Positions 3,792 to 64,000 are shown, numbered from the stretch's first letter. The stretch is DNA of 64,000 nt from Planctomycetota bacterium (GCA_034521065.1 JAXHMW010000020.1:196986-260985); one strand, 5' to 3'. Notes: generated from the sequence alone by a model not told the origin. Numbers and translations are program-made.

Positions 3792-3792
3792 G

Positions 3793-5347: not shown

Positions 5348-5356
5348 CGGCTCGGT

Positions 5357-7198: not shown

Positions 7199-7737
7199 AC
7201 GACCCATCCAGAATGCACGGCACGACAATAATCGCGGTAAGAACTGACAAGGGCTCAGCCATCGGCGGCGACGGGCAGGTTTCCCTCGGAGAGACCATCA
7301 TGAAAGCCGGAGCCCGCAAGATACGCAAGCTCAACGAAGGACAGGTGACGGTGGGTTTCGCGGGCGCCACCGCGGATGCTTTCGCCCTGCTCGAACGTTT
7401 CGAGGGCAAGCTGCGCTCGACTTCGTCTTCCACCCTGCGCAGCGCCGTTGAACTGGCGAAGGACTGGAGGACGGACAGGGTACTGCAGAAGCTCAATGCG
7501 TTCCTCGTGGTTCTCGACAAGGAGCACTTGATACTTCTTTCCGGTAACGGAGACGTGATCGAACCCGATGACGGCATTCTCGCGGTCGGTTCCGGTGGCG
7601 GATACGCGCTCGCGGCAGCGCGTGCCATGGTCGCCTCCGGCCGTACGGACGCGAAGGAGATAGTTCGCGAATCACTCGAAATCGCCTCGCAGATATGCGT
7701 TTACACCAATGACAACATCTACGTTGAGGAAGTCTGA
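7195..7737 (+). CDS. hslV: ATP-dependent protease subunit HslV
   Basis: HGTTIIAV N-terminal Thr motif and GSGG. The ATGA start overlaps the upstream stop. Confidence 0.95.
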   Translation: MNDPSRMHGTTIIAVRTDKGSAIGGDGQVSLGETIMKAGARKIRKLNEGQVTVGFAGATADAFALLERFEGKLRSTSSSTLRSAVELAKDWRTDRVLQKLNAFLVVLDKEHLILLSGNGDVIEPDDGILAVGSGGGYALAAARAMVASGRTDAKEIVRESLEIASQICVYTNDNIYVEEV

Positions 7738-9095: not shown

Positions 9096-9113
9096 CACAC
9101 CACTTCGCAGCGC

Positions 9114-9151
9114 AAAAAAGAGCCCCGCCGTGGAGGCGGGGCTTTTTATTT
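9114..9151. terminator. bidirectional rho-independent terminator
   Basis: An A-run, the stem AGCCCCGCC / GGCGGGGCT with a 5-nt loop, then a T-run, between convergent hslU and the ppiD-like gene. Confidence 0.7.
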
Positions 9152-9169
9152 CTCAAGTGTTCGGGTCTG

Positions 9170-11080: not shown

Positions 11081-11267
11081 TCGAGCATCCTTACATTTAT
11101 GTATGAGAGGTCTCTACTTCGGCATAATACCCAAGGAATTGTAGTGTCCGATTAACGTATCTCAAACATTTTTTCCAGCCTGCAACGACCTATACAGACA
11201 GGTTTTGCGCATACATGTCCTGCTCTGAGGCGGTCCGGTCGCCCATCTCATCGAACCGGATACAATC

Positions 11268-12228
11268 TTGAACATGGATATAATGCCCCTTGCCACACAA
11301 CCAATTCTTCTCGAAAAGGTATGGGGAGGCTCGCGTCTCGCGGCCTTCAACCGTGATGTGCCCGAAGGTCTCGCGGTTGGTGAATCCTGGGATGTATCCG
11401 ACTACGAGAACCTCTACAGCTATGTTTCGGCTCCGCCATTGGGCAACGTCACACTGCATAACCTTCTCGCGCGCCATGGCGAACAGGTTCTCGGACAGGC
11501 TGAATATGACCCGCGCGGGAGATTTCCGCTGCTTTTCAAACTGATAGACGCTTCGCAGCGCCTTTCGCTGCAGGTACATCCCGACGACGAGGTAGCAGCG
11601 AAGCTGAACGACCCGAACGGCGGAAAGGAAGAGGCGTGGTTTGTGCTCGAATCCGGCGAAAACGGAAGGCTTGCGCTGGGACTCCGCGACGGAACGGGCG
11701 TTGAAGACCTGCTTGATGCCATTTCATCGGGCCGCGAGGAGGAAGTCGTCAACTGGGTTCCGGTAAGAACGGGAGACTTCGTCCTTGTCCGCCCGGGACT
11801 CGTGCACGCCATTGACTCGGGAGTGGTACTTGCGGAGATCCAGCAGACAAGCGACGCCACTTACCGGCTTTCGGACTGGGGTTCAAAGCGTTCTCGTGCA
11901 ACCCATCACGAGCAGGCCCGCGCGGCTATCCGTCCCGAACTGAGTGCGAGCCTCATCCACACGGATGAGGCGCAAGAAGATGACGTCCGCCTCTGCTTCA
12001 CCGGCAAACTGACGGTAAGACTCGTGACCGTGAACGGAGAACGTGAACTGTTCCGGACCCGTTCCGCAGATAGTGTTCTGTCTGGAAGGCAGTTGTGAAC
12101 TGTCCAACGCCGAAGGTACGCTGACAGTTGAACGTTATTCTACCTCGCTTGTGCCCGCGCTGCCCGCACGCAAGACGGTACGCGGCAGGGCGAAGCTTCT
12201 GATTATGACAAACGGACCGAGGAGTTAA
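11268..12228 (+). CDS. manA: class I mannose-6-phosphate isomerase (one frame change)
   Basis: Motifs LLEKVWGGSRL, LQVHPDD, KEEAWFVLE and VHAIDSGVVLAEIQQTSD. The C-terminal barrel continues in track ORF 12043..12228 after a shift near 12040-12060. The start is uncertain (TTG 11268, ATG 11274 or ATG 11283). Confidence 0.75.
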
Positions 12229-12229
12229 A

Positions 12230-13052
12230 TTGAGAATCAACCGTTTCCTTGCGTCGGCGGGAGTTGCCAGTCGCCGTAAGGCGGAAAAGTACATACTCGA
12301 CGGAAGAGTTGCAGTCAACGGCCAAACGGTGGTTGACCTCGCCACTACGGTCACTCCGTCCGAAGACAGAGTGACCCTTGATGGGAAGCCTCTTCAAATC
12401 GAAAAGAAGGTGCACTACCTTCTCAACAAGCCCAAGGGCTACGTTACGACCAACAAGGACGAGTTGGGCCGCAAGACGGTATTCGAGCTGGTTCCCCCCG
12501 CTGCTGACAGGCTGTTCGCGGCGGGAAGGCTTGACGTGCGACTCCAGCGGTCTCGTGCTGATAACCAACGACGGCAAGCTTGCCAACCGTCTGGCACATC
12601 CTTCCTTTGAACTCGGCAAGACGTACAGGGTCTTACTCAGAGGACAGTTGAGCGAGAAGGACATCGCCGAACTTCGAAGCGGCGTATGGCTTGCCGAGGG
12701 CAAGACCAGTCCAGCGCACGTAAAGGTGGTATCTTCTACTAAGGACTCCACCATCGCGCATATCACCATCCACGAGGGCATCAACCGGCAGGTACGCAGG
12801 ATGTTCGCGAAGGTCGGGAGCAAGGTGATAGAACTGGAACGCATCTCGATCGGTCCGGTAAAAATAGAGCAAATGCAGCCCGGCGAGTGCCGCCCCCTTA
12901 CCGAGGAGGAGCTTTCGGCACTACGGGAGGCAACGCTACGCAAGAAGAAACGCAAAAAACCTCCGCACAGCCGCGGCCGTTCCGGCGGCGGTCAGCGCAG
13001 GGCGGGTCGTAAAGATTCCGACAGGGGCACAAGAAGAGGTAAGAAACGATGA
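12230..13052 (+). CDS. rluB: pseudouridine synthase, RsuA/RluB family (one frame change)
   Basis: AGGAG SD before the TTG start. S4 domain MRINRFLASAGVASRRKAE and catalytic GRLD, then a shift near 12535-12541 into track ORF 12378..13052 (SSGLVLITNDGKLANRLAHPS). The tail is Lys/Arg-rich. Confidence 0.8.
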
Positions 13053-13816
13053 AAAAGGCGACGTTTTTCCTTCTGATGACGGCGTTTGGCCTGGCAGCGT
13101 TTTCGGTTTCCACGGTCTTCGCGGACGGTGAGGAAGAGGGAACCGCGACCCCCGTGCCCAAGACCACCGGGTCCGCACAGGTTCTGAAATCAGTTGACGT
13201 TGTTACCCTCGAGGACGGAACCGAAATCCGGGGCAGGATTATCGCCGCAGGCCCGAAGGCCGTGGTGATACTCGTAGAAAAGGGCGACAAGGTGACACAG
13301 CGTACCATCTCTCGCGACAAGGTTGCGAAAGTAGAAAAGGGTAAGACCGTGCCCGAACGCGATGAGTACGAGACAGGTGTTGTGGACGGCCACGAGAAGA
13401 TTATCTCGAAAAAGGAAGGCGACGAGAACTCCTCGTCCGAGACACCCGATACACCGGAAAAGACCTCCACGCGAACACCACAAAAAACGAAACCCGCAAA
13501 GACCGACAAACCTGCCGAAATAGAGAAGCTCACCACTTCCTCCAAGGCGGATAAAATTCTCGAAGAGCTTTCGAAGCACAAATCCTTCAAGGGGCTCGCA
13601 GACATCCTCGGCAGGGAGAACGCCCTGAAGATGATCAACAACAGCCGTAAACAGAAGCACTTCCAGAGAATCCTGGAAAGCCATAACGCCGGAGACGATA
13701 TCCGGGCACGCGACATGATAGACCTGTTCTATCGCAGCCGCCTGAAGCTCGAGGACGAAACCCGTAAGCGAGCAATGCGATACCTTTCCGACATTGCATG
13801 GCAACCCAAGAGATAA
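13049..13816 (+). CDS. secreted hypothetical protein
   Basis: Intact ORF. The signal peptide MKKATFFLLMTAFGLAAFSVSTVFA is followed by DGEEEG. No recognisable domain. Confidence 0.6.
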   Translation: MKKATFFLLMTAFGLAAFSVSTVFADGEEEGTATPVPKTTGSAQVLKSVDVVTLEDGTEIRGRIIAAGPKAVVILVEKGDKVTQRTISRDKVAKVEKGKTVPERDEYETGVVDGHEKIISKKEGDENSSSETPDTPEKTSTRTPQKTKPAKTDKPAEIEKLTTSSKADKILEELSKHKSFKGLADILGRENALKMINNSRKQKHFQRILESHNAGDDIRARDMIDLFYRSRLKLEDETRKRAMRYLSDIAWQPKR

Positions 13817-13835
13817 CGTTCAAGGAGAACAGTTA

Positions 13836-15116
13836 ATGCTCCAGCTCGCGATAGCAAGGGCCGGCAAGATAAGTGACCAGGTAAAGGTCGTGGCGAACGC
13901 GGAAGGGGTTTCTTCTGACCTCGTGCGCGAAAACCTCGCGAACGGCAGGCTCGCAATACCCTGCAATAAGAACAGGGGAGACCGAAACCTGTACGGAATA
14001 GGTGCCGGCATGACCGTCAAGGTCAACGCCAACATAGGCACCAGCGGAGAGATAGACGACATAGAAATGGAACTCGAGAAGCTGCGCGCTGTGGAAGAGG
14101 CCGGAGCACATGCCGTAATGGATCTTTCCACGGGAGGCGACCTTCGCAAAACGCGCAAAATCCTTCTCGAAAACACCCGCCTGTGTACGGGCAGTGTGCC
14201 GATTTACGAAGCCGCCGCCGTCGCACGCAGAACGGAAGGCTCGTTCAACAAGCTGTCGGTGGATACCCTTCTGGAGGTCATCCGCTGGCACGCCGAGGAT
14301 GGCATAGACTTCCTCACCCTTCACTGCGGAGTCACGCGCGAGAGCGCGAAGCTCGCACAGGACAGAATATGCGGAACGGTATCGCGAGGCGGAACGCTGC
14401 TCGTGGACTGGATGGAACACAACAACGAGGAAAACCCGCTTTACACGCACTACGATGAGGTTCTGGACATCTGTCGTGAATACGACGTGACCATCTCGCT
14501 TGGCGACGGCATGCGTCCCGGTTCTCTCGCGGACTCATTCGACCAGGCGCAGATACACGAGCTTTACGTTCTTGCGGAACTTACCCGGCGTGCGTGGGAA
14601 CGCGATGTGCAGGTCATAATCGAGGGTCCCGGTCACGTTCCGCTCGACCAGGTAGAGGCTCAGGTGAAGATGATGAAGACCGTGTGCAAGGACGCGCCGT
14701 TCTACATCTTAGGGCCACTCGTAACCGACGTCGCCCCGGGATACGACCACATTACGGGAGCCATCGGCGGAGCAGTTGCGGCAATGGCGGGAGCGGATTT
14801 CCTCTGCTACGTCACTCCGGCCGAACACCTTTCTTTGCCAGATGCGAAACAGGCGAAACACGGAGTGATCGCATCGCGCATCGCAGCCCATGCTGCGGAT
14901 GTCGCACGCGGGCACAAGGGGGCTCGCGACTGGGACGACGATATGAGCCGAAGGCGCGCCGAACTCGACTGGGAGGGCATGTTCCGAAACGCCATTGACC
15001 CCGAGACCGCGCAGGCGATTCGCACCCAGGGCATGTCGAACGACCCGGACGTATGCAGCATGTGCGGAGAGTTCTGCACCTACAAGGTTCGCAAAAAGGA
15101 CACCGAAAGGCAATAG
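13836..15116 (+). CDS. thiC: phosphomethylpyrimidine synthase
   Basis: ThiC-like along its whole length, with the C-terminal CSMCGEFC cluster motif. AAGGAGA SD before ATG 13836; the track ORF starts upstream at 13794. Confidence 0.95.
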   Translation: MLQLAIARAGKISDQVKVVANAEGVSSDLVRENLANGRLAIPCNKNRGDRNLYGIGAGMTVKVNANIGTSGEIDDIEMELEKLRAVEEAGAHAVMDLSTGGDLRKTRKILLENTRLCTGSVPIYEAAAVARRTEGSFNKLSVDTLLEVIRWHAEDGIDFLTLHCGVTRESAKLAQDRICGTVSRGGTLLVDWMEHNNEENPLYTHYDEVLDICREYDVTISLGDGMRPGSLADSFDQAQIHELYVLAELTRRAWERDVQVIIEGPGHVPLDQVEAQVKMMKTVCKDAPFYILGPLVTDVAPGYDHITGAIGGAVAAMAGADFLCYVTPAEHLSLPDAKQAKHGVIASRIAAHAADVARGHKGARDWDDDMSRRRAELDWEGMFRNAIDPETAQAIRTQGMSNDPDVCSMCGEFCTYKVRKKDTERQ

Positions 15117-51273: not shown

Positions 51274-52242
51274 ATGAACGCTAAAAATGCTCTGAAGTGG
51301 TTTGGATATTTTCTCGCGGGGTTCGTCGTGGTGTTCGTGTTGTCTGTTCTTGGCTACAACATCGTCACCGGTTTCGGACTGAGAAGATACGAGAAGTCGC
51401 TGCCAAATCCGAAAGACGGCGTACCGGTCAGCGAGGCCGCGCCCTTCTCCCTTACACCTGAAGGCGAATCAGCGACAGAGGCGGTCATGTTCGTTCACGG
51501 CTTCGGCGACTGCCCGATGGACTTCGCCCAACTCCCGCAACTTGTCGCACGGGACGGATATGCTGTGAGGGCAGTCCTGCTTGCCGGACACGGCACCTCT
51601 CCCAGAGAACTCAAACACGTTACCGTGCAGGATCACCTCTCGCACCTCGGCGATGAATACGCGAGGCTCGCGAAGAGCTACGACAAAGTACACCTCGTGG
51701 GCTTTTCTTTTGGCGGCACGCTTTCGACGATACTCGCTGCACGTGCTGAAAAACGGCCTGCATCGCTCACACTTCTTGCTCCCTGTTTCGAGGTCTCGCG
51801 GCGCCGTTCCTTCCTGCTGTCACCGGAGTCCTGGGCGAAGACATTTGGTTGGATGATACCGTACGTCTCCAAGGTCGAGGCGTTTCCGCCGACCAACGAC
51901 CCCTCGATGCGCGGCAAGGTATTCTCATACCGCTATGTACCCACGAACTCGGTTGTCGTGCTTTCGGAGGCCGAACAGGTCGCGAGGAACCCCGAAACGC
52001 TCTCGAGACGATCTGGCCCTGCCCTTTTCATTCACTCTTTAGACGACCGGGTGGCATCATTCGACGCCAGCCTGAAAGCGTACCGACAGCTTGCCACGAA
52101 GCCCGAGAACAAGGTGTTCGTCGAACTTCATCGCTCCAACCATCTTCTTATGTGGGATTATGAGCGCGAAATTGTGAGGGACAGGGTGTGCGACTTCTTC
52201 GGAGTCAGTTCGAAAGGTCCTTATGCCCGCGCAGAACGCTGA
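51274..52242 (+). CDS. membrane-anchored alpha/beta-fold hydrolase (lysophospholipase/esterase-like)
   Basis: N-terminal TM, the HGFGD oxyanion region and the nucleophile elbow GFSFGG. Confidence 0.75.
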   Translation: MNAKNALKWFGYFLAGFVVVFVLSVLGYNIVTGFGLRRYEKSLPNPKDGVPVSEAAPFSLTPEGESATEAVMFVHGFGDCPMDFAQLPQLVARDGYAVRAVLLAGHGTSPRELKHVTVQDHLSHLGDEYARLAKSYDKVHLVGFSFGGTLSTILAARAEKRPASLTLLAPCFEVSRRRSFLLSPESWAKTFGWMIPYVSKVEAFPPTNDPSMRGKVFSYRYVPTNSVVVLSEAEQVARNPETLSRRSGPALFIHSLDDRVASFDASLKAYRQLATKPENKVFVELHRSNHLLMWDYEREIVRDRVCDFFGVSSKGPYARAER

Positions 52243-52265: not shown

Positions 52266-54068
52266 TTATTGAGATACTCCCAGTTCCCCTCTTCCGAGCT
52301 TCTCGGCGACAGGTGCGCGTGACAGGGACGAGCATACGACCACAGGGGAGCTCGAAGAGGCATCTATAATCCGCTTCAGGGCACTTACACCCTCTACGAA
52401 GACCGTATTGAGGTCCACTATCACGAAGGCGAACCCGTTTCGACCGGACAGCAGGCTCAATGCCTCGTCCAAACCGAGTGCGGAAGAGACAGAATAACCT
52501 ATGTGTTCCAGCATGTTGCGTGCGACGTTGGCCGAGGTGGTGTCGCTTTCGAGAAGCAGAACTTTGCCGGTTGCCCTGTGCGAGTAGAGCTTCTGGTCCG
52601 TGTCGTTCTCCTCGAATTCAAGAACAGGCAGATAAACCGTGAGGGAGAACCCCTCGCCCTTCGCGGTGCGAACCTCTACGCCGCCGCCATGGCTTCTGAT
52701 TATTCCCAGCATTGCCGCGAGCCCAAGTCCGCGACCGAGGAATTTTGTGGTATAGAAGGGGTCGAATACGCGGTGGACGAGTTCGGGAACCATGCCCGGC
52801 CCGTCGTCGCTTATCCTGAAATATGCATACGACCCTTCCCGCATATCGGGATTTCTGTACTTGTCGGCAAAGTTGTCGCCGCTGAGCGAGTCGACACCTG
52901 TGGAGACCGATATGCTCCCCGGTGCTCCGTCGAGGGACTCGATGGAGTTGTTGATGATGCTCATGAAGACCTGGCGCATCAGGAACATATCCACGGCTAC
53001 GACGTTGTCGCCCCCGTTGAGGCTCTTGGTGAACGAGATATTACTCTTGAGGGTTGCCTTTACAACAGGTATGAGTTCATGGACAAGGACGTCAATGTTC
53101 ACCTTGCTGAGGTCGGGTCTGCTCTTGCCCGCATATGCGAGCATCTGTTTGGTAAGTTCAGCCGCCATCACGCCTGCCTCCTCGATGCGGCGAACGTACT
53201 TGCGGACGGGAGATTCGGGCGGAAGGTGCATCAGCGCAAGGTCAGCGTTGCCCAGGACTCCGACGAGAAGATTGTTGTAATCGTGTGCAATTCCGCCGGT
53301 AAGTGACTGGAGGCTCTGAAGCCGCTCGCGCTCTCTCCTGCGTTCGGCTTCCAGCTCCTTAACATTGAGTGCGTGGCGGGCATCGGTGATGTCCCTCGCC
53401 AGCACAAGCGCGTATTCGGCGGATATTCGTGATACGCGCCATTCGAATGTCAATGGGGGATGGCTTGCACAAGAAGTGGCCTCCAACCTCTGTTGCTCAG
53501 CATCGTCAATAGCCTTCCGGACTTTGTTCTTCAGTGCCTGAACTACCCAGTCGGGCAGCCCGAGCTGTGTTATGTGCCTCGGTCTGGACGCGGCCTCCCA
53601 GGGAAACTCGAAGGCATCCGGAAAGTTATGTGTGAGTACCTCGCCCGAACGGGAGACCACGAAAAACGCGTCGGGGATTCCCTGCAGAACAGAAGCGTTG
53701 CATTCGGTTTTGTGCAGCAGATACCTGACCTTTCCGGCAAGAGACTTGGAGTCAGGCTCGCCGAAATCTATGAAATCGGAATAGGGCGCAAACTCCCTGA
53801 GAACATCTCCTTCAGGGATATCGTCCACGTGTACAAGAAGCTGCACGACGGCGTTTTTGCGTCGTACATCAGCCAATTTCTGGACCATTTCATGTGTGAA
53901 TTCGTGCTCACGCCAGAGCAAGATGTCATGGCGACGGTTTTCGTTAAGAACTCCGTCGAGGTGATCGTAATACAGGCATTCGGTACCGGGAAAGTCCTTG
54001 AGAGCAGAATAGATATCTCTGTGCTGCTCCTTAGTGAACCCACAAAGGGCGATGGAGTAAGTGCTCAT
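52266..54068 (-). CDS. cytoplasmic hybrid sensor histidine kinase (pseudo-receiver, PAS-like, HisKA, HATPase_c, receiver)
   Basis: H-box LTGGIAHDYNNLL, N-box IINNSIESL, G1 DDGPGM, G2 GRGLGL, and a C-terminal receiver with FVIVDLN. Confidence 0.85.
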   Translation of the reverse strand: MSTYSIALCGFTKEQHRDIYSALKDFPGTECLYYDHLDGVLNENRRHDILLWREHEFTHEMVQKLADVRRKNAVVQLLVHVDDIPEGDVLREFAPYSDFIDFGEPDSKSLAGKVRYLLHKTECNASVLQGIPDAFFVVSRSGEVLTHNFPDAFEFPWEAASRPRHITQLGLPDWVVQALKNKVRKAIDDAEQQRLEATSCASHPPLTFEWRVSRISAEYALVLARDITDARHALNVKELEAERRRERERLQSLQSLTGGIAHDYNNLLVGVLGNADLALMHLPPESPVRKYVRRIEEAGVMAAELTKQMLAYAGKSRPDLSKVNIDVLVHELIPVVKATLKSNISFTKSLNGGDNVVAVDMFLMRQVFMSIINNSIESLDGAPGSISVSTGVDSLSGDNFADKYRNPDMREGSYAYFRISDDGPGMVPELVHRVFDPFYTTKFLGRGLGLAAMLGIIRSHGGGVEVRTAKGEGFSLTVYLPVLEFEENDTDQKLYSHRATGKVLLLESDTTSANVARNMLEHIGYSVSSALGLDEALSLLSGRNGFAFVIVDLNTVFVEGVSALKRIIDASSSSPVVVCSSLSRAPVAEKLGRGELGVSQ

Positions 54069-54357: not shown

Positions 54358-55122
54358 CTACTTTGTTGCCTTTGCAGCCGGGGGAAGTATGAATATCTCA
54401 ACGCGGCGGTTCTTCGCCTTGTTCTCAGCAGTGTCATTCGGCGCTACCGGACGGAAGTAAGCGAACCCGGCAATGGACATGCGCTTCTCCTCGACGCCTT
54501 TCTTGCGCAAACCGTGAAGGACGTTCGCCGCACGGGCAACCGAGAGCTCCCAGTTGGACGGATACACCGCTTTGCTGATGGGGTCGCTGTCGGTGTGACC
54601 TTCGATGCGAATCATTCTGTTCGGGAAGTCGGTCTTGAGCGCGTCGGCGATGGCATCAATAGCCTGTTTAGCTCCGGGCTTGAGGTCGGTTTTTCCGCTG
54701 TCGAACAGGATTCGGTTTTCGAGCGTGAGCAGTATCTCGTCACCACGCTTGCTGACTGTCACGCCCTCGACGTTTGCAAGCTTGTTTTCGAGCTTGGATC
54801 TCTCGTCCTCCAGTTCCTGCTTACTGGCCTTCAGTTCCTCGAGCTTCGCCTGCAGTTCGGCCGAGCGATGCTTCATCTGCTCGAGCGCGGTCTTGAGTTC
54901 TTCCAGCTCGACCTTCGACGCGTAGTACTTGTCGCGCCAGTCGTTTCGCTCAGCGGAGATATTGTTCATCTCACGGCGCAGAGTTTCAATCTGCTCGTGC
55001 AACTGGGCGATCTGAACCTTGATTTTCTCGTTTTCCGCCATAAGTGCGACATCAGGGTCTTTGCGGTCACAGCCTGCGAAAAGAAAAAGGATCACGACGA
55101 ATGCAAGTGCTACTTTTTTCAT
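54358..55122 (-). CDS. OmpA/Pal-family lipoprotein with N-terminal coiled coil
   Basis: Lipobox LFLFAGC, a heptad-rich segment of about 110 aa, and the OmpA-like motifs LFDSGKTDL, NWELSVARA and NRRVEI. Confidence 0.85.
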   Translation of the reverse strand: MKKVALAFVVILFLFAGCDRKDPDVALMAENEKIKVQIAQLHEQIETLRREMNNISAERNDWRDKYYASKVELEELKTALEQMKHRSAELQAKLEELKASKQELEDERSKLENKLANVEGVTVSKRGDEILLTLENRILFDSGKTDLKPGAKQAIDAIADALKTDFPNRMIRIEGHTDSDPISKAVYPSNWELSVARAANVLHGLRKKGVEEKRMSIAGFAYFRPVAPNDTAENKAKNRRVEIFILPPAAKATK

Positions 55123-55249: not shown

Positions 55250-55279
55250 CGAAAAAGGGGACGGCAAGCCGTCCCCTTT
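55250..55279 (-). terminator. rho-independent terminator ending the 55.3-64 kb operon
   Basis: On the minus strand: stem GGGGACGG / CCGTCCCC with loop CTTG, followed by TTTTTCGTCTTTC. It lies about 30 nt downstream of the stop at 55307. Confidence 0.7.
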
Positions 55280-55306
55280 GTAATGCGATTCGAAGATGTG
55301 CAGAGC

Positions 55307-55963
55307 TCAGGTTATGAAGTTGACGGTCTCCTTGATCCACTTGTACCAGAGGAAGTTAACACGACCGATAAGCAGCGAGAAACGTGCCATGACCGTGTAA
55401 CCGAAGGTGGCTCCGAAAGAGACCATGATGTAGATGATGCCCACGCGGATGGGAATCTTCACGAGCTTGCCGCGATGCTCGATGGAGAAGAAGAAGTAGA
55501 ACAGCGTACACAGAACACCGGCTACGATCAGGAAGTTATTGAATTCGAAGCCCGCACTGCTCCACAGCGGAAGCATTGACGCACCGAGTTGCTTGAATAA
55601 CTGGGCCTGCACCATGTACGGAATGGCGTAGCCTGAACCGAATCCGATGAGTGCTGCCATCGGCCAGCGAGAGAGCCATCCGTATCGCCGTGAGAAGCGC
55701 GTCAGGTACATAAGACCGAGAGTACACGCGATAAGATACACGAGCTTGCCCTGGTAGAACAGCGGAACAACGAGACGCGGATAGGCAATCTGGTCGTAGT
55801 AAAGACCGAGCAGATATCCCACAGAGGTGCCTACGAACAGGGCTTCACCGAACTTGTACAGCACGTTGTCCTTGTACAGGAAAGAGAAGATGCAAAGCGT
55901 CAGAAACGCTCCGATCCAATACTGCAGGATGTCGGCAAATCCGATATCTATTGCTGATTCCAT
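55307..55963 (-). CDS. integral membrane protein of unknown family (218 aa, about 6 TM)
   Basis: Intact ORF. AGGAGG SD 5 nt before ATG 55963, overlapping the upstream stop. Hydrophobic throughout. No motif recognised. Confidence 0.6.
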   Translation of the reverse strand: MESAIDIGFADILQYWIGAFLTLCIFSFLYKDNVLYKFGEALFVGTSVGYLLGLYYDQIAYPRLVVPLFYQGKLVYLIACTLGLMYLTRFSRRYGWLSRWPMAALIGFGSGYAIPYMVQAQLFKQLGASMLPLWSSAGFEFNNFLIVAGVLCTLFYFFFSIEHRGKLVKIPIRVGIIYIMVSFGATFGYTVMARFSLLIGRVNFLWYKWIKETVNFIT

Positions 55964-55972
55964 TGTTACCTC

Positions 55973-56818
55973 CTACTGCTCGATCTGCTTTTCCTTGGCA
56001 CGCTGCATAAAGTAAAAGATGTTGCCAAGGATGATGAGAACGGATGACAAGCAACATAGAGACAGCCCGACTGAGAAACCCATTCCTCGCTTACCACGGC
56101 CAGTGTGATAGTCAATAAGGTGCTCGTACTCTGCGGCACCCTTGAGCGCGGGAAGCATGCCGACAAGCTGACCGGACTGCAGGAACGGATAGAAGTTCGC
56201 AACGAGCACGCCGGTAACACCGAGAGCAATCTTCTTGCCGTAACGGGTGCCGGGCAGGTTGATCCAGTTGTAGCCGACGTTAGTTCCTGAAAGCGATATG
56301 CACAACTCGAACTCGTCCAGATTCCTTACTCCCTTCATCATGGGCAGTGAACGAAGGTCACGGCCCTGGAAGTCGGTCTGGAAGACCTCGATCATGTCCT
56401 CGCCGATCTGAAGAAGAACAGGACCGATACGGAAGCCTGCCCAAACGTAGCGGGAACCGTCGTCCGGTATGCCGAACTCCTGGCTAATGCGCGCGAAGAC
56501 CTCGACTCCGAGGTTCTGCCCCTGGAGGTTGAGTGTCATGCCGAATACCCTTATGCCCTTGCGGAAGGCGTGACGAAGCAACGCTTCCGCCATCGGATGA
56601 AGCTCGGGCTCGGTTGCGGGGTCGTAGTCGAGGGAGAGAATGATTCGCGAATCGGGGGGAAGACTCTCCATCTCTTTGTACAACGCCTCAACGGGCGGAG
56701 AGGTGATCGTCGGCATCTTTACCTCGAAGACCATCGGCAGAATAACTGCCAGTGCGACGAGGATGAACACGTAACGGGGGTTTATGTTAACAATTTTGTC
56801 GATCGTCGATTTCTTCAC
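55973..56818 (-). CDS. bitopic/2-TM membrane protein with a central soluble domain of about 200 aa, unknown family
   Basis: GTG 56818 with a GGGAGG SD. N-terminal TM YVFILVALAVILPMVF and C-terminal TM GFSVGLSLCCLSSVLIILGNIFYF. Confidence 0.6.
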   Translation of the reverse strand: MKKSTIDKIVNINPRYVFILVALAVILPMVFEVKMPTITSPPVEALYKEMESLPPDSRIILSLDYDPATEPELHPMAEALLRHAFRKGIRVFGMTLNLQGQNLGVEVFARISQEFGIPDDGSRYVWAGFRIGPVLLQIGEDMIEVFQTDFQGRDLRSLPMMKGVRNLDEFELCISLSGTNVGYNWINLPGTRYGKKIALGVTGVLVANFYPFLQSGQLVGMLPALKGAAEYEHLIDYHTGRGKRGMGFSVGLSLCCLSSVLIILGNIFYFMQRAKEKQIEQ

Positions 56819-56830
56819 TTCAAACCTCCC

Positions 56831-57481
56831 TTAACCGAGGTACGCTCGCTCGATACCGAGGATCATCTTCAACGACGTGGCTATACTGCCGAGCGCAATA
56901 CCGAGCAGAATGCCTCGCGACGCTGCGTTGTTGGGCACTTCCATCAGCCAGTTGGAGAACTCGTTAGCTCCGGGGATGGCCATGTTGCCGATGGACGTAT
57001 CCGGAATAAGAATAGCGCCGACGTCAACTCGTCCGAAGATGACTATCGTCGCAGCGATCAGGAGCATGGTCGCCTCGAAGTTCTTCGCCTTGAAAGCTCG
57101 GAACGATGCCGAGGCCATGTAGAACGCCAGCAACGAAAACATCGTGGACTGAAGCGGCACCATGATCGTGTTATAGGCCCAGTTGTAAGGCGAACCCGCC
57201 TGCTGACCCCCTATAATACCAAGCAACGCCATGATGACCATTGAACCAAAGAGAACGTAGCTGAAAAGCCAGTCAGAACGCTTGTGCTGAATCTTCTTCC
57301 AGTGAAGGTTCACAAGCGAATACACGCCGAGAAACATCGCAACGACGCCGATAACGGCGGCGAAGTTACTCATTTCATTGAGCATGTCGGACTGGACTGC
57401 GGGGTGTTTGATGAAGAACTGGACCATCATGAACACACCCGGCAAGAAGCATAATGCGAGTGGTATTTGCCGTTTTAACAT
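56831..57481 (-). CDS. integral membrane protein of unknown family (216 aa)
   Basis: Intact ORF with several hydrophobic helices. No motif recognised. Confidence 0.6.
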   Translation of the reverse strand: MLKRQIPLALCFLPGVFMMVQFFIKHPAVQSDMLNEMSNFAAVIGVVAMFLGVYSLVNLHWKKIQHKRSDWLFSYVLFGSMVIMALLGIIGGQQAGSPYNWAYNTIMVPLQSTMFSLLAFYMASASFRAFKAKNFEATMLLIAATIVIFGRVDVGAILIPDTSIGNMAIPGANEFSNWLMEVPNNAASRGILLGIALGSIATSLKMILGIERAYLG

Positions 57482-57501
57482 CTGCTACCGTTGCCTTTCG
57501 C

Positions 57502-58265
57502 CTACTGAACCCTGAGTATTTCGGAAAGCCAACACGCAGGGGCCGGCGTGTTTATGGACACCGCGATGCAGCCGATTAAGACCATCACGAACATGAGCAT
57601 CTTCGAATAGTCCGAACCTTTCAGGGAACCCATCTGCATGGGGCTCGCGAGAAAGGTATGCGGATGCTGCGTACAGCTCCTCTCCGATGAGCGTGTAGTC
57701 GCACGCCACGATGAAGAACGGGAGCTGGTGAATGGAGTCGGAACCGGCGACCTGGATAGAACCGGTCATCGCGCCGGTCTCAGCGAGGATGAGCGATTCA
57801 GCGTAAAATCCGCCCATGAAGAAGTTCGCGGCCGGCTTTTCGCGGGCAGTAAACCCAGCTGCTGGGCGAACAGGAACCTGTCGGCATGATAAAAAGTAAA
57901 CTGGTCATCATTGACGGTAGCGCAACGGCATGGGGGATGCCGACTTCACGGTACCTGTCGATAGTTCGTCACAAATCAGGTCGCGCATCCGGCAAGATCG
58001 CGGCATGTCATCGGCGATCTTGCGAGCCACACGGCCGAGGATATTGATGGCCGCAATGGTGCCGATAAACTCGATGTTGTCCATACCGGGACGTAGAGAT
58101 CGGCTTGCCCATCTCGGTCGCACGGCCGACAGCCTCGTCAACGGAGTAGACCGGCGATGCGAGTGAACCATCCTGCCGGCGTGCGGTGTAAATGAAGTAG
58201 ATGATGAACGCGAACAGCACGATCATGCCGATAAGTACGTTCAACTTCGCGAAGTCGAAGATCAT
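57502..58265 (-). CDS. membrane protein of unknown family, at least four frame changes
   Basis: ATG 58265 overlaps the upstream stop (ATGA). Pieces appear in track ORFs 58008..58286, 57908..58171 and 57485..57817, plus an untracked C-terminal piece (MQMGSLKGSDYSKMLMFVMVLIGCIAVSINTP..., stop at 57502-57504). Two adjacent in-frame TGA codons lie near 57907-57912 in one of the frames. Confidence 0.4.
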
Positions 58266-61200
58266 CGATGAGCAATCTGATCCCATAAACTGCCCGCAAG
58301 CAAAATGTGCTTTGAGCCAATGTCGGATGGTATGAGAGTACCATCTCCGGACGCGGCGTAGTACACACGAGCTGAAACCGCCTCGGGGGGAATCTTGGCT
58401 GAAATGGAAACGGACGGCGGCTGGATGGCCGTCTGGCGTTCCAGGAAGCTGTAGTGGATGGTGGGGATGCTCTTCTCTTCGCTACTTACCACCTCTTGAT
58501 TTGCATCGAGGAACTCCACGCCCATGACAGGGTTATCAAGTTTGTAGGCGAAGCACCTGCTGGAAACTTCGAAGTTCCTGCCTACCAAGTCGTCTAGGGC
58601 GTCTGCGGGGAACTCGCAAATCTGCTGAATGCGAATCTGCTCTCCACTGAGCGGAATGGCCGAATAGTCGTACATGTTGTCCATGATGTCATCGATCAGG
58701 AAGGTCTTTGCCTTCAGACCGTATGCCTCGAAGTTCTCCGGACGATTCTTCTCGGTCGAGGCGAACCCGGTTCGGCGAACATTCCCCCGGCCATCCACTG
58801 TCTTCAAGCTGTCAGGGTCACCAGCCGGCGAAGTCGGTCTTGAACAGTGCTTCGGAGACCGTTATCTTGTCTGACACGGGCTTAACGTAATTGAAATCAG
58901 CCCTTGCGACAGCGTAAGGCGCATTGCGGAGTTGCTCGGGGATAGTCGCGAGAACCGCATCGGTATCCTCGGCAGGGTCGGAGCCCATGAACTTGAACTT
59001 TGTAATCTGGTAACGCGCGCCAGTGCCTCCATCGAAGCGAATAAACGCACGCACACGCTTCAGGCCCTCGGGTACCACCGTTGTCACCTTGGAAAGCTGA
59101 TAGGGGCTGAAAAGGAGGTCTTTGGGATCGGTGCCTTCGATGACATGTTCGAGCGCAATAACGGTGTCCACCGGCTCCTTGGGATCGTCTCCGTAGAACT
59201 CGAAACCGACCTTGCCGGTCAGGGGCTTTTCACACCGGGCCAGGCACTTCAGGGTTATCTCCTTGCCGGCAAGCTTCTTGAGAAACTCGGGAGTAAGGGC
59301 CTCAATATCCTGATAGAGCATGCCCTGCTCCTTGCGGACAGTGCCCTGGACAGGGGAAGTATTGTAGTGGAAATCCAAAAGCGAGCTGAGGTCGGTGTCT
59401 CCGGAGAGTTCCCACCCGGAAAGTTCTCCGGCTCTTACACTGAAACTGGTATTGCTGATCGTATTGCTGGGAAGCGCGATTCTCTCCGCTTCCATGCGCA
59501 TATTGTCGAAGTAAACCTTGCCCACGCCCTTCATAGTCAGGCGGAACAAGAGGGTGGATACCTCTTCGTGCACAATTAACGCGCATTTCAAGTCCTTGAC
59601 CCAGCCATCGGTCTTGCCGCCGAGGGTAAAGGAGCTCGGCCAGGCCTCGAGAGGAGTGATATTGACCTTGCGACGCGAAGCCGGATATATCTCGATCTTT
59701 GCGTTCTGTCCGAAGTCGTTCTTGATAATGTCGGTCTTGATGTCGGCCTTCATTACGAGCTTGTAACCCGCCGGCACCTTCGGCGCGATGGCACGGATGT
59801 TGAGAGTGGTACTCTGGCCGAGGTTCGGGTTGATGACGCAGACGGAGCGTTCGCCTTCAGTGGAATCGCCGATGATTCCGACCGTGACGCCGCCCATGTC
59901 GTTAGCGGCGGGCTGCCAGTCTGCCGGGGCGGGTGTGAACATCTCCTCGAAACCGGTATTTCAGGAGCTGCGTATTCGCCCTGGTCGTCGACGACCTCGA
60001 TCTTGACATCGTCGAACCAGGCGCGGCCATAGCCGCGAAGCAGGAGCTGCCCATTCGATGCCGAAGCTTCGGGCGGGCACGACGAACTCGGAGGATCTGT
60101 CCTGCCGGAGCCGTTCAGACTCGCCGAACGGCGGTGATCCACAGAACGTCTGTGGCATCGCCACGAGATTCGAGGAATTGTGCCGTGGTCCTTGGCGGCT
60201 GATCTGCTCTGGTGGGAACATGGTTGCTGTGGTTAAGAAGTTGCGCAGGAAGTGATCGTGAAGTTCACCTTCGGCGTCGGACTCCTCGGTGTCCTCGACG
60301 CGCACGAGCCTCCCGGATGCCGCCCATGCAGGTACCGCTCGGAGTGACTCCGGGCGCCATCTGGCTGAGAACCTTGGCGGTCATTCGTATCTTCTTGCCG
60401 CGCAGGGAGCGGTTCTTTCCAATGTCAAAATTGACGGTGAAAGCTATGTTTTCGGCGAGATTAAGAGGATTGGGGTTGCCAATTTCGAGGCTGTATTCGC
60501 CTTCGACCTTCTTCTCGGTAGTGGCGTTGAAGTACGTCTGCTGCCCTCCGGGACGGAAGAACCATTCCTTCGGCTGTTTTCTGTTGACAGGGATGAGTGC
60601 GTTCAGGTCGAGGTTGAACGGCTTTTTAAGCGCGGCTTCGCCGTTTTCGGGATAGGTGAGCTTGAGGTCCTCGAAAATCGCCTCGGCCTGGCCCTTGCAT
60701 TCGAGCATAACCATCGCTTCGTTGACGTTTTCGGGAACCGTCGCCTCTACGTAGAGGGTGACGTAGTCATCGGTGGGGGAGAACGCCATGAGCCTCGTCT
60801 TGGCGGGGGGTACGATCGTGCCGGACTCCAAACCCTCGATGCCCTCGGCGCTCGGAAGCTTCGGATTGAACATGAACAGCAGGTTCAAACCGGCGTAATT
60901 GGTGTAGTCGAGAACTTCGTTCTTGCCGAAATCCTCACCCATAACGAGCTTCTTGATGCCCTCAATGCGGGTGGCTTTGCCGTCCACCATGCGCTGACCA
61001 CTGGCCTTGTAGACCTTGACCTTCGCCTCGAACCGGATGGTCTTGCCGGTGATTGCGCGGAGTTTGTCCGCACATGGGAAGCTGGCGTATGCGGCGTTGG
61101 TGTACTTCGCCTTCGGGTTGTCGGTGGCTATATGGATGCCGTGAATGTTCTCTCCACCGCGTTCCCGAACGTTCAGGGCAACCGAGTTACCGTTCCCCTG

Positions 61201-61395
61201 GGCTACGAACTTGTGCCAGCCATACGGGAAAGTCGCATGAGGGTCAACCTCTGCGACCGGTTCTTCAAAGCCCTCGTTGCTGATAAGATTCAGCGGGTCG
61301 ATATCCGATTTCTGCTGTTCTTCTTCGCCCCACGCGAAGCCGTACAGGCCCGCGACGAGGAGCAGAACAAGCGATATTCCGATGAGCCGTTTCAA
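58262..61395 (-). CDS. secreted protein of about 1040 aa built from about five jelly-roll/carbohydrate-binding-like modules (about four frame changes)
   Basis: TTG 61395 with an AAGGAGG SD. Signal MKRLIGISLVLLLVAGLYGFAWG. Modules start like NEGFEEP or NTSFSV and end like FEDLKL, WFDDVKI or YFDNMRM. Track ORFs 60265..61395, 59961..60305, 59753..60142, 58818..59942 and 58262..58807 join near 60300-60310, 60048-60058, 59955-59965 and 58812-58822. Confidence 0.55.
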
Positions 61396-61417
61396 TGGTA
61401 CCTCCTTGACGAAGAGG

Positions 61418-62554
61418 TTATCTTGCGATCAACTCGACGTTTGCACGCGGGATGGTTCCCTTCGTGCCGCCCTGGAACTCCGCTTGAAGCACGCGAACCC
61501 AGGTTTCAGAATCGACCTGAGTGAGTTCCGGCGGAAGGTTGACCACCTTGCCTATCTTTCCGAAGTATGGTTCTCGGATCGCGCGGATGAGCGAACCAGG
61601 GGCCAGAACACCTTCGCCGTGCTGAGAGTCGTCCGAGACCTCTTTGAGCTTCTCATCCTTGACAGGTATGATGATCTCGGGTCTCATGACGCCGGCACGA
61701 ATCTGGGTTGCGCCGCTTATCGAGGCTTCCATGCCTTCGCGCTTCTTGAGAAGCTCGAAGGTGTGCTCCGCCATCTTTATCCTGCCGTAACCCTCTGTAA
61801 TGATGAGGGAGAACGGAATGTCTTCATGTCCGGTGATAGCGACACCGAGGTCCTCACCGAGGATGCGCTTGAGGTCAGAGTCATCGAAACCACCGATCAC
61901 TATGCCCTTGACACCGAACTCTTCCGCCTTCTTCAATGCGTCGTAGCTCACATACGAGCCTCCGACGATAATCTTGCCCTTGCAGTCCTCGGTGATGAGT
62001 TCCGAGGTTAGTTCGGAGTAAGTGTCTTCGGTAACGATCTTTATCTCGCCGCGTCGCTCGCCGCCAATGCCGAAAATGCCCTGGATGAAACTGCCGGTCG
62101 CCTCGACCATGCAGCCTTCGTCCTCTATGACATCTGTGACCTTTGAGTCGAAGTAGGCATCAACCTGAACGGGGATGTCCGGACCGCGCAGCATCATCTG
62201 GCCGGTAACCTGCGAAATAGCCTCGATATGGCCTTCGATGGGGGACTTAACGCTGGTCTTGAGGAACTTGATTCCGAGAAAGCCATTGTTCTCTGCAAGG
62301 ACCTGGCCCTTTTTGATGGCGTCACCCTCTTTGACCTTGAGGTATTCGCCCAGCTCAGAGGGCTGGCAGCCCATCTTGTGAACCAGGTTGAGCGGTGATA
62401 TCTTGCCGGGAAGATATGTGCGGGCGATAATATCCTCGGCCTTGAGGACGTCGCCGACCTTGACCTGCACATCGCCTTTCAGAGGCAGCCTGCGTTCCTT
62501 GCGGACCACCATTAGTTCGGATACTTTGAGTCCAGGGGTATATGCCTGTCCCAC
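61418..62554 (-). CDS. cytoplasmic protein of unknown function: barrel-sandwich-like N-terminus, Rossmann-like middle, KOW/SH3-like C-terminus
   Basis: Intact 378-aa ORF. GTG start with an AGGAGG SD that overlaps the upstream TAG. Key stretches are LPLKGDVQVKVGDVLKAEDIIA, GKIIVGGSYVSYDALKKAEEFGVKGIVIGG and GSLIRAIREPYFGKIGKV. These domain guesses are made by eye only. Confidence 0.6.
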   Translation of the reverse strand: MGQAYTPGLKVSELMVVRKERRLPLKGDVQVKVGDVLKAEDIIARTYLPGKISPLNLVHKMGCQPSELGEYLKVKEGDAIKKGQVLAENNGFLGIKFLKTSVKSPIEGHIEAISQVTGQMMLRGPDIPVQVDAYFDSKVTDVIEDEGCMVEATGSFIQGIFGIGGERRGEIKIVTEDTYSELTSELITEDCKGKIIVGGSYVSYDALKKAEEFGVKGIVIGGFDDSDLKRILGEDLGVAITGHEDIPFSLIITEGYGRIKMAEHTFELLKKREGMEASISGATQIRAGVMRPEIIIPVKDEKLKEVSDDSQHGEGVLAPGSLIRAIREPYFGKIGKVVNLPPELTQVDSETWVRVLQAEFQGGTKGTIPRANVELIAR

Positions 62555-62562
62555 TGTGCCTC

Positions 62563-63624
62563 CTATTTATCTACAAGCAGCTTGTAGATCTCGGGATTGC
62601 CCATTACGTCCGATACGTAAAGGATCCACTTGCCGTCCGGAGAGAACTCTGGCTGGTTCTCGCGAAATTGATTGTTCGTCAGCCGAACGGTCGTCTTTTT
62701 TTCTGTGTCGTATAAGTAAAACTCCCACTGACGCACGCCCGTGTTCACGTGGAGCACGACCTTGGTGCCAGATGGGTTGACTGCGAAACTCAAAAACGGG
62801 TTCTCTGGCTCGAACAGAACTTTCTTGTCCGAACCATCGGCGTTCATCGTCATCACCTGGTATTCGCCGGTCTTCACATCGGACAGGTAGAAGACCCTGC
62901 CGTCGGCGACCGGTTGAGGATAGGTGTTTTCGAATCCTTCGCCGTCTTTCGTTGTTGTCAATATCTTGCGTTCGGTGCCGTCGGCCTTTACACGGCAGAC
63001 GTTGGCGAAACCGTCGTCGTTGAACTCGACGTAATACACGTATTCGCCCTTGTGGTCGAAGACCGGGTAGTCGCAGTGGTTGGGGGTTTCGACGAGTTTT
63101 CCGCCTTCGCCCTTTTCAATGTCGAAGTAGCTGAGTCCCTGCACGTCGCCGAGGGTAACGAACACGAGCTTCTTGCCGTCGGGGGACATGACAAGGTTGC
63201 CGATGCCGATGCTGGGAACCGGGTAGTCCTTGCGGTCGGCCCCCTTGAGGTCTACCGATGCGATACCCTTTTTCTCGCCCCTGCTGTAGCAGAAGAACAC
63301 CCTCTTGCCGTCGGGACTGAATAACGGACGCGAATGGGACTCGCCTTCCACGTCGCACAACGGGCGCGCGTCCTTGCCGTCCGCCTTCATGATGTGAACG
63401 ACGCTGCGGCCAGCGGCACCCTTGATTGTGGAGATAAATACGATCTGAGACATGTCTGGCGAGAAACTGGGATCGGTGTCTATGACGGGGTCGTTCGTGA
63501 GACGAATCTCTTCGAATTGAGGTTCATTCTCCTCGCCCTTTGCGGACGGGTGGCCAATGCCCGCGGCAGAGACCGCGCACAACAGCAAGAAGAAGACTAC
63601 TGATATTCGAAGAATACTGTACAT
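62563..63624 (-). CDS. periplasmic TolB-like beta-propeller (PD40 repeats)
   Basis: ATG 63624; the track ORF starts upstream at 63819. Signal MYSILRISVVFFLLLCAVSAAG. Repeated FSPDG-type blades: SFSPDMSQIVF, LFSPDGKRVFF, VMSPDGKKLVF, EFSPDGKWILY. Confidence 0.8.
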   Translation of the reverse strand: MYSILRISVVFFLLLCAVSAAGIGHPSAKGEENEPQFEEIRLTNDPVIDTDPSFSPDMSQIVFISTIKGAAGRSVVHIMKADGKDARPLCDVEGESHSRPLFSPDGKRVFFCYSRGEKKGIASVDLKGADRKDYPVPSIGIGNLVMSPDGKKLVFVTLGDVQGLSYFDIEKGEGGKLVETPNHCDYPVFDHKGEYVYYVEFNDDGFANVCRVKADGTERKILTTTKDGEGFENTYPQPVADGRVFYLSDVKTGEYQVMTMNADGSDKKVLFEPENPFLSFAVNPSGTKVVLHVNTGVRQWEFYLYDTEKKTTVRLTNNQFRENQPEFSPDGKWILYVSDVMGNPEIYKLLVDK

Positions 63625-63631
63625 CGTTACG

Positions 63632-64000
63632 TTACATTTCCTTGGGCTCGAACTTGTGTTCCGGGTAGATGTCAAGGGCTTTGTTCCATTCGAGCAGCTT
63701 TTTGACACGTTCGCCCGGGTCATCGGGGATATTGAAAGGCCTGCGACCGCGGCTGTCAAGTATGATGCCCACAACTCCGCCGTGCAGTTTCTTTGTGAGG
63801 GGCTTGCCCCTGCCGGCACCGACGTCGAACTTGCGCTTCGGAGTTATCTCGGCGGTCGCCTCTTCGTCAACCGCGAGAGGAATCTTCTCGATGGAACCGT
63901 ACTTGCATTCGCGCTCTTCGACCTTGCCGTCCGGCATGGTTATCTTGATATTCATGGTAATCTCGCCGTCCTTGCCCTTTCCGACGGGGGCAACGGCGGT
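63632..64000 (-). CDS. 3-prime part of a gene that continues beyond the window; unknown function
   Basis: The frame stays open upstream of Met 63955 to the window edge (..TAVAPVGKGKDGEITMNIKITMPDGK..). The C-terminus is GVVGIILDSRGRRPFNIPDDPGERVKKLLEWNKALDIYPE. It is faintly reminiscent of ASKHA/GlmL(MutL)-type C-termini, but I cannot support that assignment. Confidence 0.45.
   Translation of the reverse strand, partial: TAVAPVGKGKDGEITMNIKITMPDGKVEERECKYGSIEKIPLAVDEEATAEITPKRKFDVGAGRGKPLTKKLHGGVVGIILDSRGRRPFNIPDDPGERVKKLLEWNKALDIYPEHKFEPKEM

Follow-up and report, generated by a model that had tools for sequence, protein, structure and literature searches.

A minus-strand gene cluster at the end of a 64,000-nucleotide stretch of DNA from a Planctomycetota bacterium (GCA_034521065.1, JAXHMW010000020.1:196986-260985; the whole stretch is here called the window) is one copy of a widespread six-gene module that we could place in no known system. 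The module encodes, in order, an actin-fold ATPase of the GlmL/MutL family (A), a conserved cytoplasmic protein of 378 amino acids (c378, B), a membrane protein with a Pfam DUF6754 domain (D), and three further membrane proteins, m216 (E), m281 (F), and m218 (G). Tight linkage across several phyla and translational coupling suggest that the six proteins work together, and the best reading, which we advance with somewhat less than even confidence, is a new ATP-coupled inner-membrane machine acting on the cell envelope. An earlier reading of the same DNA from its sequence alone (the sequence-only reading) had described a dedicated, translationally coupled membrane machine without a name, which stands; the free secreted binding protein and the lack of an ATPase that went with it do not. 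The six-gene set, the link to an ATPase, and the breadth of distribution were found in no searched literature; the domain of D is already catalogued as a domain of unknown function (DUF). No publication was found via the DUF6754 and PF13941 identifiers, and nothing relevant turned up in the literature searched for GlmL, for glutamate mutase, and for Nitrospira or anammox bacteria.

Conservation and spread of the module

One genome per species was scanned with a pattern for the 281-amino-acid family, 80 loci were examined, and six family profiles were run on all open reading frames (ORFs). At least 593 species, spread over many phyla, carry the four-gene membrane core. Its order, DUF6754-m216-m281-m218, is kept in 60 of 64 evaluable loci, so that conservation of gene order in relatives, which the sequence-only reading had singled out for checking, is borne out. 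The full A-B-D-E-F-G order was present in 37 of 58 loci. Of 83 loci, 81 have m216, in each case between the DUF6754 and m281 genes, and 82 have m218, directly after m281. Median intergenic gaps are 3 to 6 nucleotides, and 70 nucleotides between the ATPase and c378 genes. When metagenomic loci were chosen by their c378 gene, the ATPase gene lay next to it in 28 of 39. The families are large, with at least 8,000 clusters at 90% identity for DUF6754 and 4,124 clusters at 50% identity (E ≤ 1e-10) for m281.

The six-gene order is found in Nitrospirota (e.g., Nitrospira lenta, L019), Planctomycetota (Brocadiaceae and Scalindua, including anammox bacteria), Armatimonadota, and Zixibacteria, and the carriers thus include environmentally important nitrite oxidizers (Nitrospira) and anammox bacteria. 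WOR-3, Ignavibacteria, Cloacimonadota, and others mostly have the four-gene core alone. Ten loci contain two or three tandem D-E-F-G sets, never with more than one ATPase-c378 pair. Tandem cores were seen in metagenome-assembled genomes (MAGs) of the Fibrobacteres-Chlorobi-Bacteroidetes (FCB) group and related lineages (L004, L005, L011, L021, L033, L039, L041, L042, L062, L071, and L078).

Organization of the cluster in the window

Read from the sequence, the genes form an array that runs without interruption on the minus strand from beyond position 64000 down to 55307. After the gene model was corrected with the orthologue from the closest relative with a long contig, a Brocadiia MAG (locus L001), the cluster comprises seven genes from the ATPase fragment to m218, not the eight originally counted, two of which are one gene. 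The features are as follows.

63632..64000, minus strand: 3' end of the GlmL/MutL-family ASKHA ATPase gene (A), 122 codons and stop; the gene start lies beyond the window
62563..63624, minus strand: PD40/TolB-like beta-propeller of 353 amino acids with a signal peptide (PF07676, E = 7.7e-25)
61418..62554, minus strand: c378 (B), conserved cytoplasmic protein of 378 amino acids (sub-threshold Pfam matches; family scan)
57502..61395, minus strand: single DUF6754-family gene (D), colinear across four frames with the 1277-amino-acid L001 protein
57502..58286, minus strand: DUF6754 domain region of D (PF20539), the "254-amino-acid membrane protein" of the sequence-only reading
56831..57481, minus strand: m216 (E), polytopic, about six predicted transmembrane (TM) helices, N terminus inside (family hidden Markov model [HMM], E = 8.8e-87)
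55973..56818, minus strand: m281 (F), N-terminal TM helix, Rossmann-like domain of about 200 amino acids, C-terminal TM helix (AlphaFold2 predicted local distance difference test score [pLDDT], 92)
55307..55963, minus strand: m218 (G), polytopic, about six predicted TM helices, last gene of the operon (family HMM, E = 4e-85)
55254..55279, minus strand: intrinsic terminator closing the operon, hairpin GGGGACGG-CTTG-CCGTCCCC followed by TTTTT
54358..55122, minus strand: OmpA-family peptidoglycan-binding lipoprotein with a coiled coil (PF00691, E = 5e-20; lipobox LFAGC)

The junctions between the genes, all on the minus strand, read as follows.

ATPase stop TAA 63632-63634 to propeller ATG 63624: gap of 7 nucleotides (sequence read)
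propeller TAG stop to c378 GTG 62554: gap of 8 nucleotides, with TAGGAGG overlapping the stop
c378 to DUF6754 gene TTG 61395: gap of 22 nucleotides, with AAGGAGG before the start
DUF6754 gene to m216 ATG 57481: gap of 20 nucleotides (sequence read)
m216 to m281 GTG 56818: gap of 12 nucleotides, with GGGAGG before the start
m281 to m218 ATG 55963: gap of 9 nucleotides, with TAGGAGG before the start

These short gaps and Shine-Dalgarno sites agree with the tightly packed minus-strand operon that had been described. The terminator claimed at 55250-55279 was likewise recovered: the hairpin at 55279-55254, which follows m218, has an 11-bp stem with seven G-C pairs and a T tail, and it ranks first among terminator-like sites in the 54- to 64-kb region.

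A GlmL-family ATPase at the window edge

The sequence-only reading had found no ATPase encoded in the cluster. The truncated ORF at the window edge can instead be assigned to the C terminus of a GlmL-family ATPase of about 610 amino acids, whose MutL domain would lie beyond the edge; the 122 residues in the window match positions 492 to 605 of the 606-position family HMM (E = 2.9e-37) and are 60% identical to the L001 orthologue. Full-length orthologues of about 600 to 620 amino acids are encoded upstream of c378 in relatives and match Pfam MutL (PF13941, actin/ASKHA clan) with E values of 1e-124 to 1e-131 (416 to 440 bits). In their consensus the phosphate-1 motif DCGSTTTK, the phosphate-2 motif DIGGATTD, and the adenosine motif GSGG are kept at 90% conservation or above. 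The same orthologues reach only 236 to 237 bits against NCBIfam GlmL (NF040745, cut-off 475) and 210 to 214 bits against the ornithine-pathway Or-4 model (NF040744, cut-off 600), and scores this far under both cut-offs indicate that the module ATPases form a separate subfamily. A sequence search of the PDB with one ATPase sequence found nothing.

The 378-amino-acid protein c378

From its N to its C terminus, c378 is read as a putative barrel-sandwich hybrid domain of the RnfC/NqrA type, a central alpha/beta region rich in Gly, and a KOW-like domain. Against RnfC_N (cut-off 25.6), a generic motif of the lipoyl/biotinyl-like kind, the score of the window protein is 20.6 bits. Pfam was also run on 143 sequences, 38 from the c378 family, the sole plausible source of RnfC_N and KOW matches, and 105 from the membrane-protein families; RnfC_N was matched by 30 members (E ≤ 0.05, best 1.4e-7) and KOW by 10. 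The barrel-sandwich/KOW protein proposed earlier is borne out at family level, the matches being sub-threshold in the window protein and recurrent across its family. The family alignment has a mean column identity of 59% and about 70 invariant residues, with a very conserved central region, and sequence profiles of c378 detected no relative in the PDB. In the metagenomic loci L098, L105, L117, and L092, c378 stands alone among housekeeping genes (accA, prfB, folP, and an aminotransferase gene), and in these lineages (c378 at about 10001-11130 or 5709-6833) there are no ATPase or membrane genes within 10 kb.

The DUF6754 gene is broken in this assembly

Many interruptions break up the reading frame of the window from 61395 to 57485. 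At the same place L001 has one gene, whose product of 1277 amino acids ends in a C-terminal Pfam DUF6754 domain. By tblastn and a frameshift-aware alignment, the window is colinear with residues 1 to 1276 of that protein, which demands at least 12 frame changes and still leaves in-frame stops; the gene end at 57502 lies in the frame that matches the orthologue C terminus. Positions 4-62, 66-92, and 132-220 of PF20539 are matched in three different window frames with 39.7, 17.0, and 140.9 bits, the 17.0-bit fragment falling under the gathering score of 27 bits, and the Pfam profile finds positions 93-131 in no window frame. Intact orthologues score 381 to 397 bits. The window gene D therefore belongs to Pfam DUF6754, with a domain that is not contiguous in one frame. 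Neither the exoprotein of about 1040 amino acids nor the 254-amino-acid membrane protein of the sequence-only reading exists as an ORF; both are parts of one gene colinear with the 1277-amino-acid orthologue, and the ATGA overlap reported at 58262-58265 falls within a stretch that the orthologue reads through without a break (..AYRMYFDF..). One of the four membrane proteins once thought unassignable is consequently a DUF6754 member. In the NCBI annotation the pieces appear as three hypothetical proteins (U5N86_13230, 13235, and 13240), so that the public record of this MAG divides one gene of about 1270 codons among several hypothetical proteins.

The damage is local to the 3.9-kb D gene. Elsewhere the 64-kb window contains intact ORFs as long as 927 codons, and the other genes of the cluster are likewise intact, with an identity to the L001 orthologues of 63 to 69% (40% in the case of the lineage-specific propeller). 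The module copy here is either inactive or locally mis-sequenced, and we see the chances as evenly divided that the breaks are assembly or consensus errors in the MAG contig, with an intact module in the organism, rather than marks of a pseudogene. A 66-amino-acid stretch of the DUF6754 domain retains all family-invariant residues, several shifts resemble single-base changes in runs of 2 to 4 nucleotides (CC to C, GGG to GG, and CCC to CCCC), and the six neighbor genes, which would be useless without D, remain intact. Real decay is favored by an in-frame TGA TGA inside D, by about 40 residues without a match to the Pfam profile, the invariant AGRPD motif among the losses, by the confinement of the errors to a single 3.9-kb gene, and by the fact that the frame-change sites are not long homopolymers. 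No relative with more than 90% identity that carries D was found to resolve the frameshifts; the nearest D-carrying relatives found (L001 and L162) have c378 proteins only 69% identical to that of the window, and the relatives at 89 to 90% identity are contigs of 1.6 to 1.9 kb.

The ectodomain and conserved domain of D

The D protein consists of a signal peptide, a beta-rich ectodomain of about 1000 amino acids, a TM helix, a DUF6754 domain predicted to be cytoplasmic, and a C-terminal TM helix. A basic stretch follows the first TM helix, after which come the domain of about 200 amino acids, with about 75 positions invariant across phyla, and the final helix; given this basic stretch, the DUF6754 domain should be cytoplasmic. 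The "secreted binding protein" of the sequence-only reading is therefore the lineage-specific ectodomain of a membrane subunit and not a free exoprotein. Its supposed five modules of the jelly-roll type, resembling carbohydrate-binding modules (CBMs), find no support either. Neither the window fragments nor the intact orthologues of 1276 and 1277 amino acids gave a Pfam match in the ectodomain at E ≤ 1, BLASTP self-comparison revealed no internal repeats, and a CBM identity was rejected on these grounds. Only the short motifs N-x-G-F-E and (V/A)(Y/W)FDD stand out, and a homologue search with one piece of the ectodomain returned that protein alone. The ectodomain is about 37% identical to that of the L001 orthologue, in contrast to 63 to 69% for the other subunits.

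In relatives, the signal peptide of D is usually followed by a single FN3 domain (titin-like Fn3 matches), and some D proteins are 275-amino-acid forms without any ectodomain. Since the large ectodomain is lineage specific and most relatives have a single FN3 domain or nothing in its place, capture by the ectodomain cannot be the core function. L001 encodes a second DUF6754 paralogue of 1276 amino acids (9973-13803), 45% identical, without its own 216, 281, and 218 genes. A Cloacimonadota locus, L060, encodes DUF6754 proteins of 932 and 944 amino acids with long ectodomains (6542-9340 and 11621-14455), in which Pfam gives sub-threshold fn3 and helical-repeat matches only. The second giant D of L001 and the long ectodomains of L060 show that ectodomains vary greatly between lineages. 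In L086, a relative at 70% identity (Kow00107 Planctomycetota MAG), a protein of 1282 amino acids without a Pfam match is encoded just after m218 on the opposite strand (1833-5681, minus strand).

In the AlphaFold2 prediction, the FN3 domain and the N-terminal half of DUF6754 were modeled. Foldseek recognized the FN3 ectodomain alone in the model of the DUF6754 protein.

Membrane subunits m216, m281, and m218

The m281 protein carries two arginines before its first TM helix and two after its last, so that its Rossmann-like domain is predicted to be periplasmic by the positive-inside rule. Foldseek matched the m281 model to generic Rossmann and GT-B halves only, with a TM-score normalized to the query (TMq) of at most 0.36. 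Insertions of 100 to 550 residues occur in several members of the family, P0266 (838 amino acids), P0291 (630), P0368 (643), and P0078/P0088 (393), and sit inside or after the periplasmic alpha/beta domain. In m216 and m218 no invariant acidic residue lies within the predicted TM segments, and hence an ion-driven motor finds no support.

The claim that the membrane proteins fall outside known transporter and secretion families survived Pfam, NCBIfam, and PDB profile searches. Nothing significant was found for the membrane subunits in Pfam or NCBIfam, PDB profile searches with them were empty, and they match none of the ABC, MFS, Sec, MotA-ExbB, or known secretion-component profiles; m216 has no recurrent Pfam match, m218 has none at all, and neither has a match in the PDB. 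Among the 143 scanned sequences, no Pfam family recurred in more than two except the RnfC_N, Biotin_lipoyl, NQRA_N, KOW, and Biotin_lipoyl_2 matches of c378, and PDB sequence profiles of the five non-ATPase families gave nothing beyond FN3. Two further candidates were discarded. Paralogy of m216 with m218 and of m281 with the DUF6754 protein, suggested by similar topology and a C-terminal motif, was dropped at hhalign probabilities of at most 1.5%. An anti-phage defense system was rejected because PADLOC gave no match for eight cluster proteins, five of them encoded in the window and the other three at orthologous loci.

The architecture of the core also invites a different explanation, in line with the uptake role raised by the sequence-only reading: a substrate transporter for uptake or export, in which E and G would form the path, the periplasmic F domain and the D ectodomain would bind cargo (e.g., a glycan), and the ATPase, with c378 as the coupling subunit, would supply the energy, much as one shared ATPase energizes several permease modules. 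Two polytopic proteins of about six helices beside a periplasmic alpha/beta domain would suit such a role, as would tandem D-E-F-G sets that share one A-B pair and a D ectodomain that differs between lineages, with its low identity (about 37%) relative to the other subunits (63 to 69%). We consider a transporter unlikely, if worth keeping in mind. The subunits have no similarity to transporter families in Pfam, NCBIfam, or the PDB, many D proteins (the 275-amino-acid forms) have no ectodomain with which to bind anything, the giant ectodomain has no match to a carbohydrate-binding module in Pfam, and no substrate-related enzymes are conserved nearby. Transporters powered by an ASKHA ATPase, moreover, are not known, which also counts against this explanation.

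Comparison with known systems

By analogy, the module would work most like Tol-Pal or a PilMNO-type platform while being a member of neither; the only memberships that hold are Pfam DUF6754 for D and Pfam MutL for the ATPase orthologues. With Tol-Pal the cluster shares the combination, in one operon, of inner-membrane proteins with a PD40 propeller of the periplasm and a peptidoglycan-binding lipoprotein that has an OmpA domain, as well as a plausible role in passing energy from the inner membrane on to the envelope. Unlike Tol-Pal, however, the cluster has no TolQ/TolR (MotA_ExbB/ExbD) or TolA match in Pfam or NCBIfam, nor does any recur among the 105 membrane-family members scanned, its propeller scores 115 bits against a TolB cut-off of 343 bits, the propeller and OmpA protein are present in this lineage only, and its energy would come from an actin-fold ATPase instead of the proton-motive force. 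PilM-PilN-PilO, like the FtsA and MreB membrane tethers, pairs a cytoplasmic protein of the actin fold with co-encoded membrane proteins whose domains reach into the periplasm, as here. The module nevertheless gives no PilM, PilN, or PilO match in Pfam, differs in subunit number and topology, and has no pilins, secretin, or PilB/T ATPases linked to it.

The resemblance to GlmL/MutL and related ASKHA accessory proteins of B12-dependent mutases, and to the DdrA and EutA reactivases, lies in the MutL domain and the conserved ASKHA motifs. The module ATPase differs in falling under the equivalog cut-offs, in an extra C-terminal domain of about 120 amino acids, and in its gene context, since it is never beside mutase genes (glmS/glmE) and is instead translationally coupled to c378 and the membrane module. 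These family ties nonetheless suggest another possibility, a membrane-bound enzyme or biosynthetic complex in which the DUF6754 and F domains would be catalytic and the GlmL-like protein would serve as an ATP-dependent chaperone or reactivase, the role proposed for its relatives with B12-dependent mutases, and not as a motor. Characterized members of the GlmL family accompany glutamate and ornithine mutases (NCBIfam names), the roughly 75 invariant DUF6754 positions are of a kind typical of active sites, the best Foldseek matches of F, though weak, are to Rossmann folds of the nucleotide-sugar or NAD(P) type, and a gene for a Memo-like metalloprotein follows the module in Nitrospirota and at one Chloroflexi locus. 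Yet the ATPase lies well under the GlmL equivalog cut-off (237 versus 475 bits), no genes for a mutase or for cofactor biosynthesis are linked to it, Foldseek yields non-specific matches (TMq ≤ 0.36), and no recognizable catalytic motif was identified, so that we regard an enzyme complex as quite improbable.

Rnf/Na+-NQR complexes resemble the module in the putative RnfC_N/NQRA_N-type barrel-sandwich of c378 and in two polytopic membrane proteins of about 210 amino acids encoded nearby. When profiles were compared with E. coli RsxC, RsxA, and RsxE, however, only a 24-column match of the hybrid motif emerged, hhalign against RsxA and RsxE gave probabilities of 0.1 to 0.4% in what is a weak test with single-sequence templates, and no Rnf-Nqr, FMN-binding, or Fe-S Pfam domain was found in any module subunit. 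Homology to Rnf/Nqr was rejected, since only the generic hybrid motif aligns. ABC and energy-coupling factor (ECF) transporters can likewise be compared with the two or three tandem membrane modules served by a single cytoplasmic ATPase pair, but the scanned genes have no P-loop ABC ATPase and no ABC/ECF permease signature, and the ATPase of the module is of the actin fold.

A candidate ATP-coupled envelope machine

Under the preferred reading of an inner-membrane machine, D, E, F, and G would form one complex, with the DUF6754 domain on its cytoplasmic face and the F domain on its periplasmic face. A and B would dock on the cytoplasmic DUF6754 domain, and ATP binding and hydrolysis by A would drive a conformational change, relayed by the four membrane subunits to the periplasmic parts, by which the complex would perform work on the cell envelope. 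One A-B pair would serve several D-E-F-G modules that differ in their ectodomains; such a shared energizer is proposed because tandem D-E-F-G sets come with at most one A-B pair and because the additional D of L001 lacks its own E-F-G genes. In the lineage of the window, the recruited TolB-like propeller, Pal-like lipoprotein, and giant ectodomain suggest a part in tethering or maintenance of the envelope, a role analogous to that of Tol-Pal and not homologous with it.

More broadly, an actin-fold ATPase of the GlmL type, in place of a P-loop ATPase or an ion-driven stator, may power an unrecognized class of four-subunit envelope machine, a generalization that we offer as doubtful. It is similarly speculative that this class would be widespread in Nitrospira, anammox bacteria and other Planctomycetota, Armatimonadota, and the candidate phyla of the FCB group, as their counterpart of systems like Tol-Pal or of a dedicated translocase. 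If true, energizing of a membrane complex by an actin-fold ATPase would add a new mode of ATP-driven work across the bacterial inner membrane, and it could fill gaps in the envelope biology of phyla without well-studied model organisms. No component of the module has a solved structure or an informative name.

Several observations weigh against this machine. Its mechanism is put together wholly from gene linkage and predicted topology, and the topology itself comes from hydropathy and charge bias (positive-inside), not from a dedicated predictor. About one-third of the D-E-F-G loci have no adjacent A-B pair, and some lineages have c378 alone; the missing pairs imply that the ATPase may be dispensable or only loosely coupled. 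In the most conserved half of the DUF6754 domain (P0205 residues 256-346), AlphaFold2 gave a pLDDT of 30 to 50; this half may need its partner subunits in order to fold, or the alignment may have lacked depth. The copy of D in the window is disrupted. Finally, the propeller and OmpA protein are confined to close relatives, so that the Tol-Pal analogy may not generalize.

Lineage-specific and neighboring genes

The beta-propeller begins at ATG 63624, and its protein sequence, read from the DNA, is MYSILRISVVFFLLLCAVSAAG. The propeller with a signal peptide and PD40 repeats that had been proposed is confirmed, the repeats by the PF07676 match, and against TIGR02800 TolB it scores 115.4 bits (cut-off 343). 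Its gene is an insert between the ATPase and c378 genes seen only in the close relatives L001 and L002. The OmpA lipoprotein gene lies 3' of the terminator in the window and occupies the same place after m218 in L001 and L002. Its best NCBIfam matches are MotB/MotD-like, all under their cut-offs, and the protein is probably a lineage-specific accessory of the cluster despite the intervening terminator. The arrangement that combines propeller, OmpA lipoprotein, and an ectodomain of about 1000 amino acids was seen in close relatives only.

A hybrid sensor kinase of 600 amino acids (52266-54068, minus strand), with an HATPase_c domain and a sub-threshold receiver-domain match, and an alpha/beta hydrolase of 322 amino acids (51274-52242, plus strand) also adjoin the cluster; their genes are not kept beside it in relatives. 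No upstream neighbor of the module is recurrent. Downstream, a single gene recurs, encoding the Memo-like protein (PF01875) of about 415 amino acids, which makes up 27 of 134 downstream neighbors (e.g., L019, 11753-13000, and L085, 3578-4816) and directly follows m218 in many Nitrospirota loci and in the one Chloroflexi (Petrachloros) locus.

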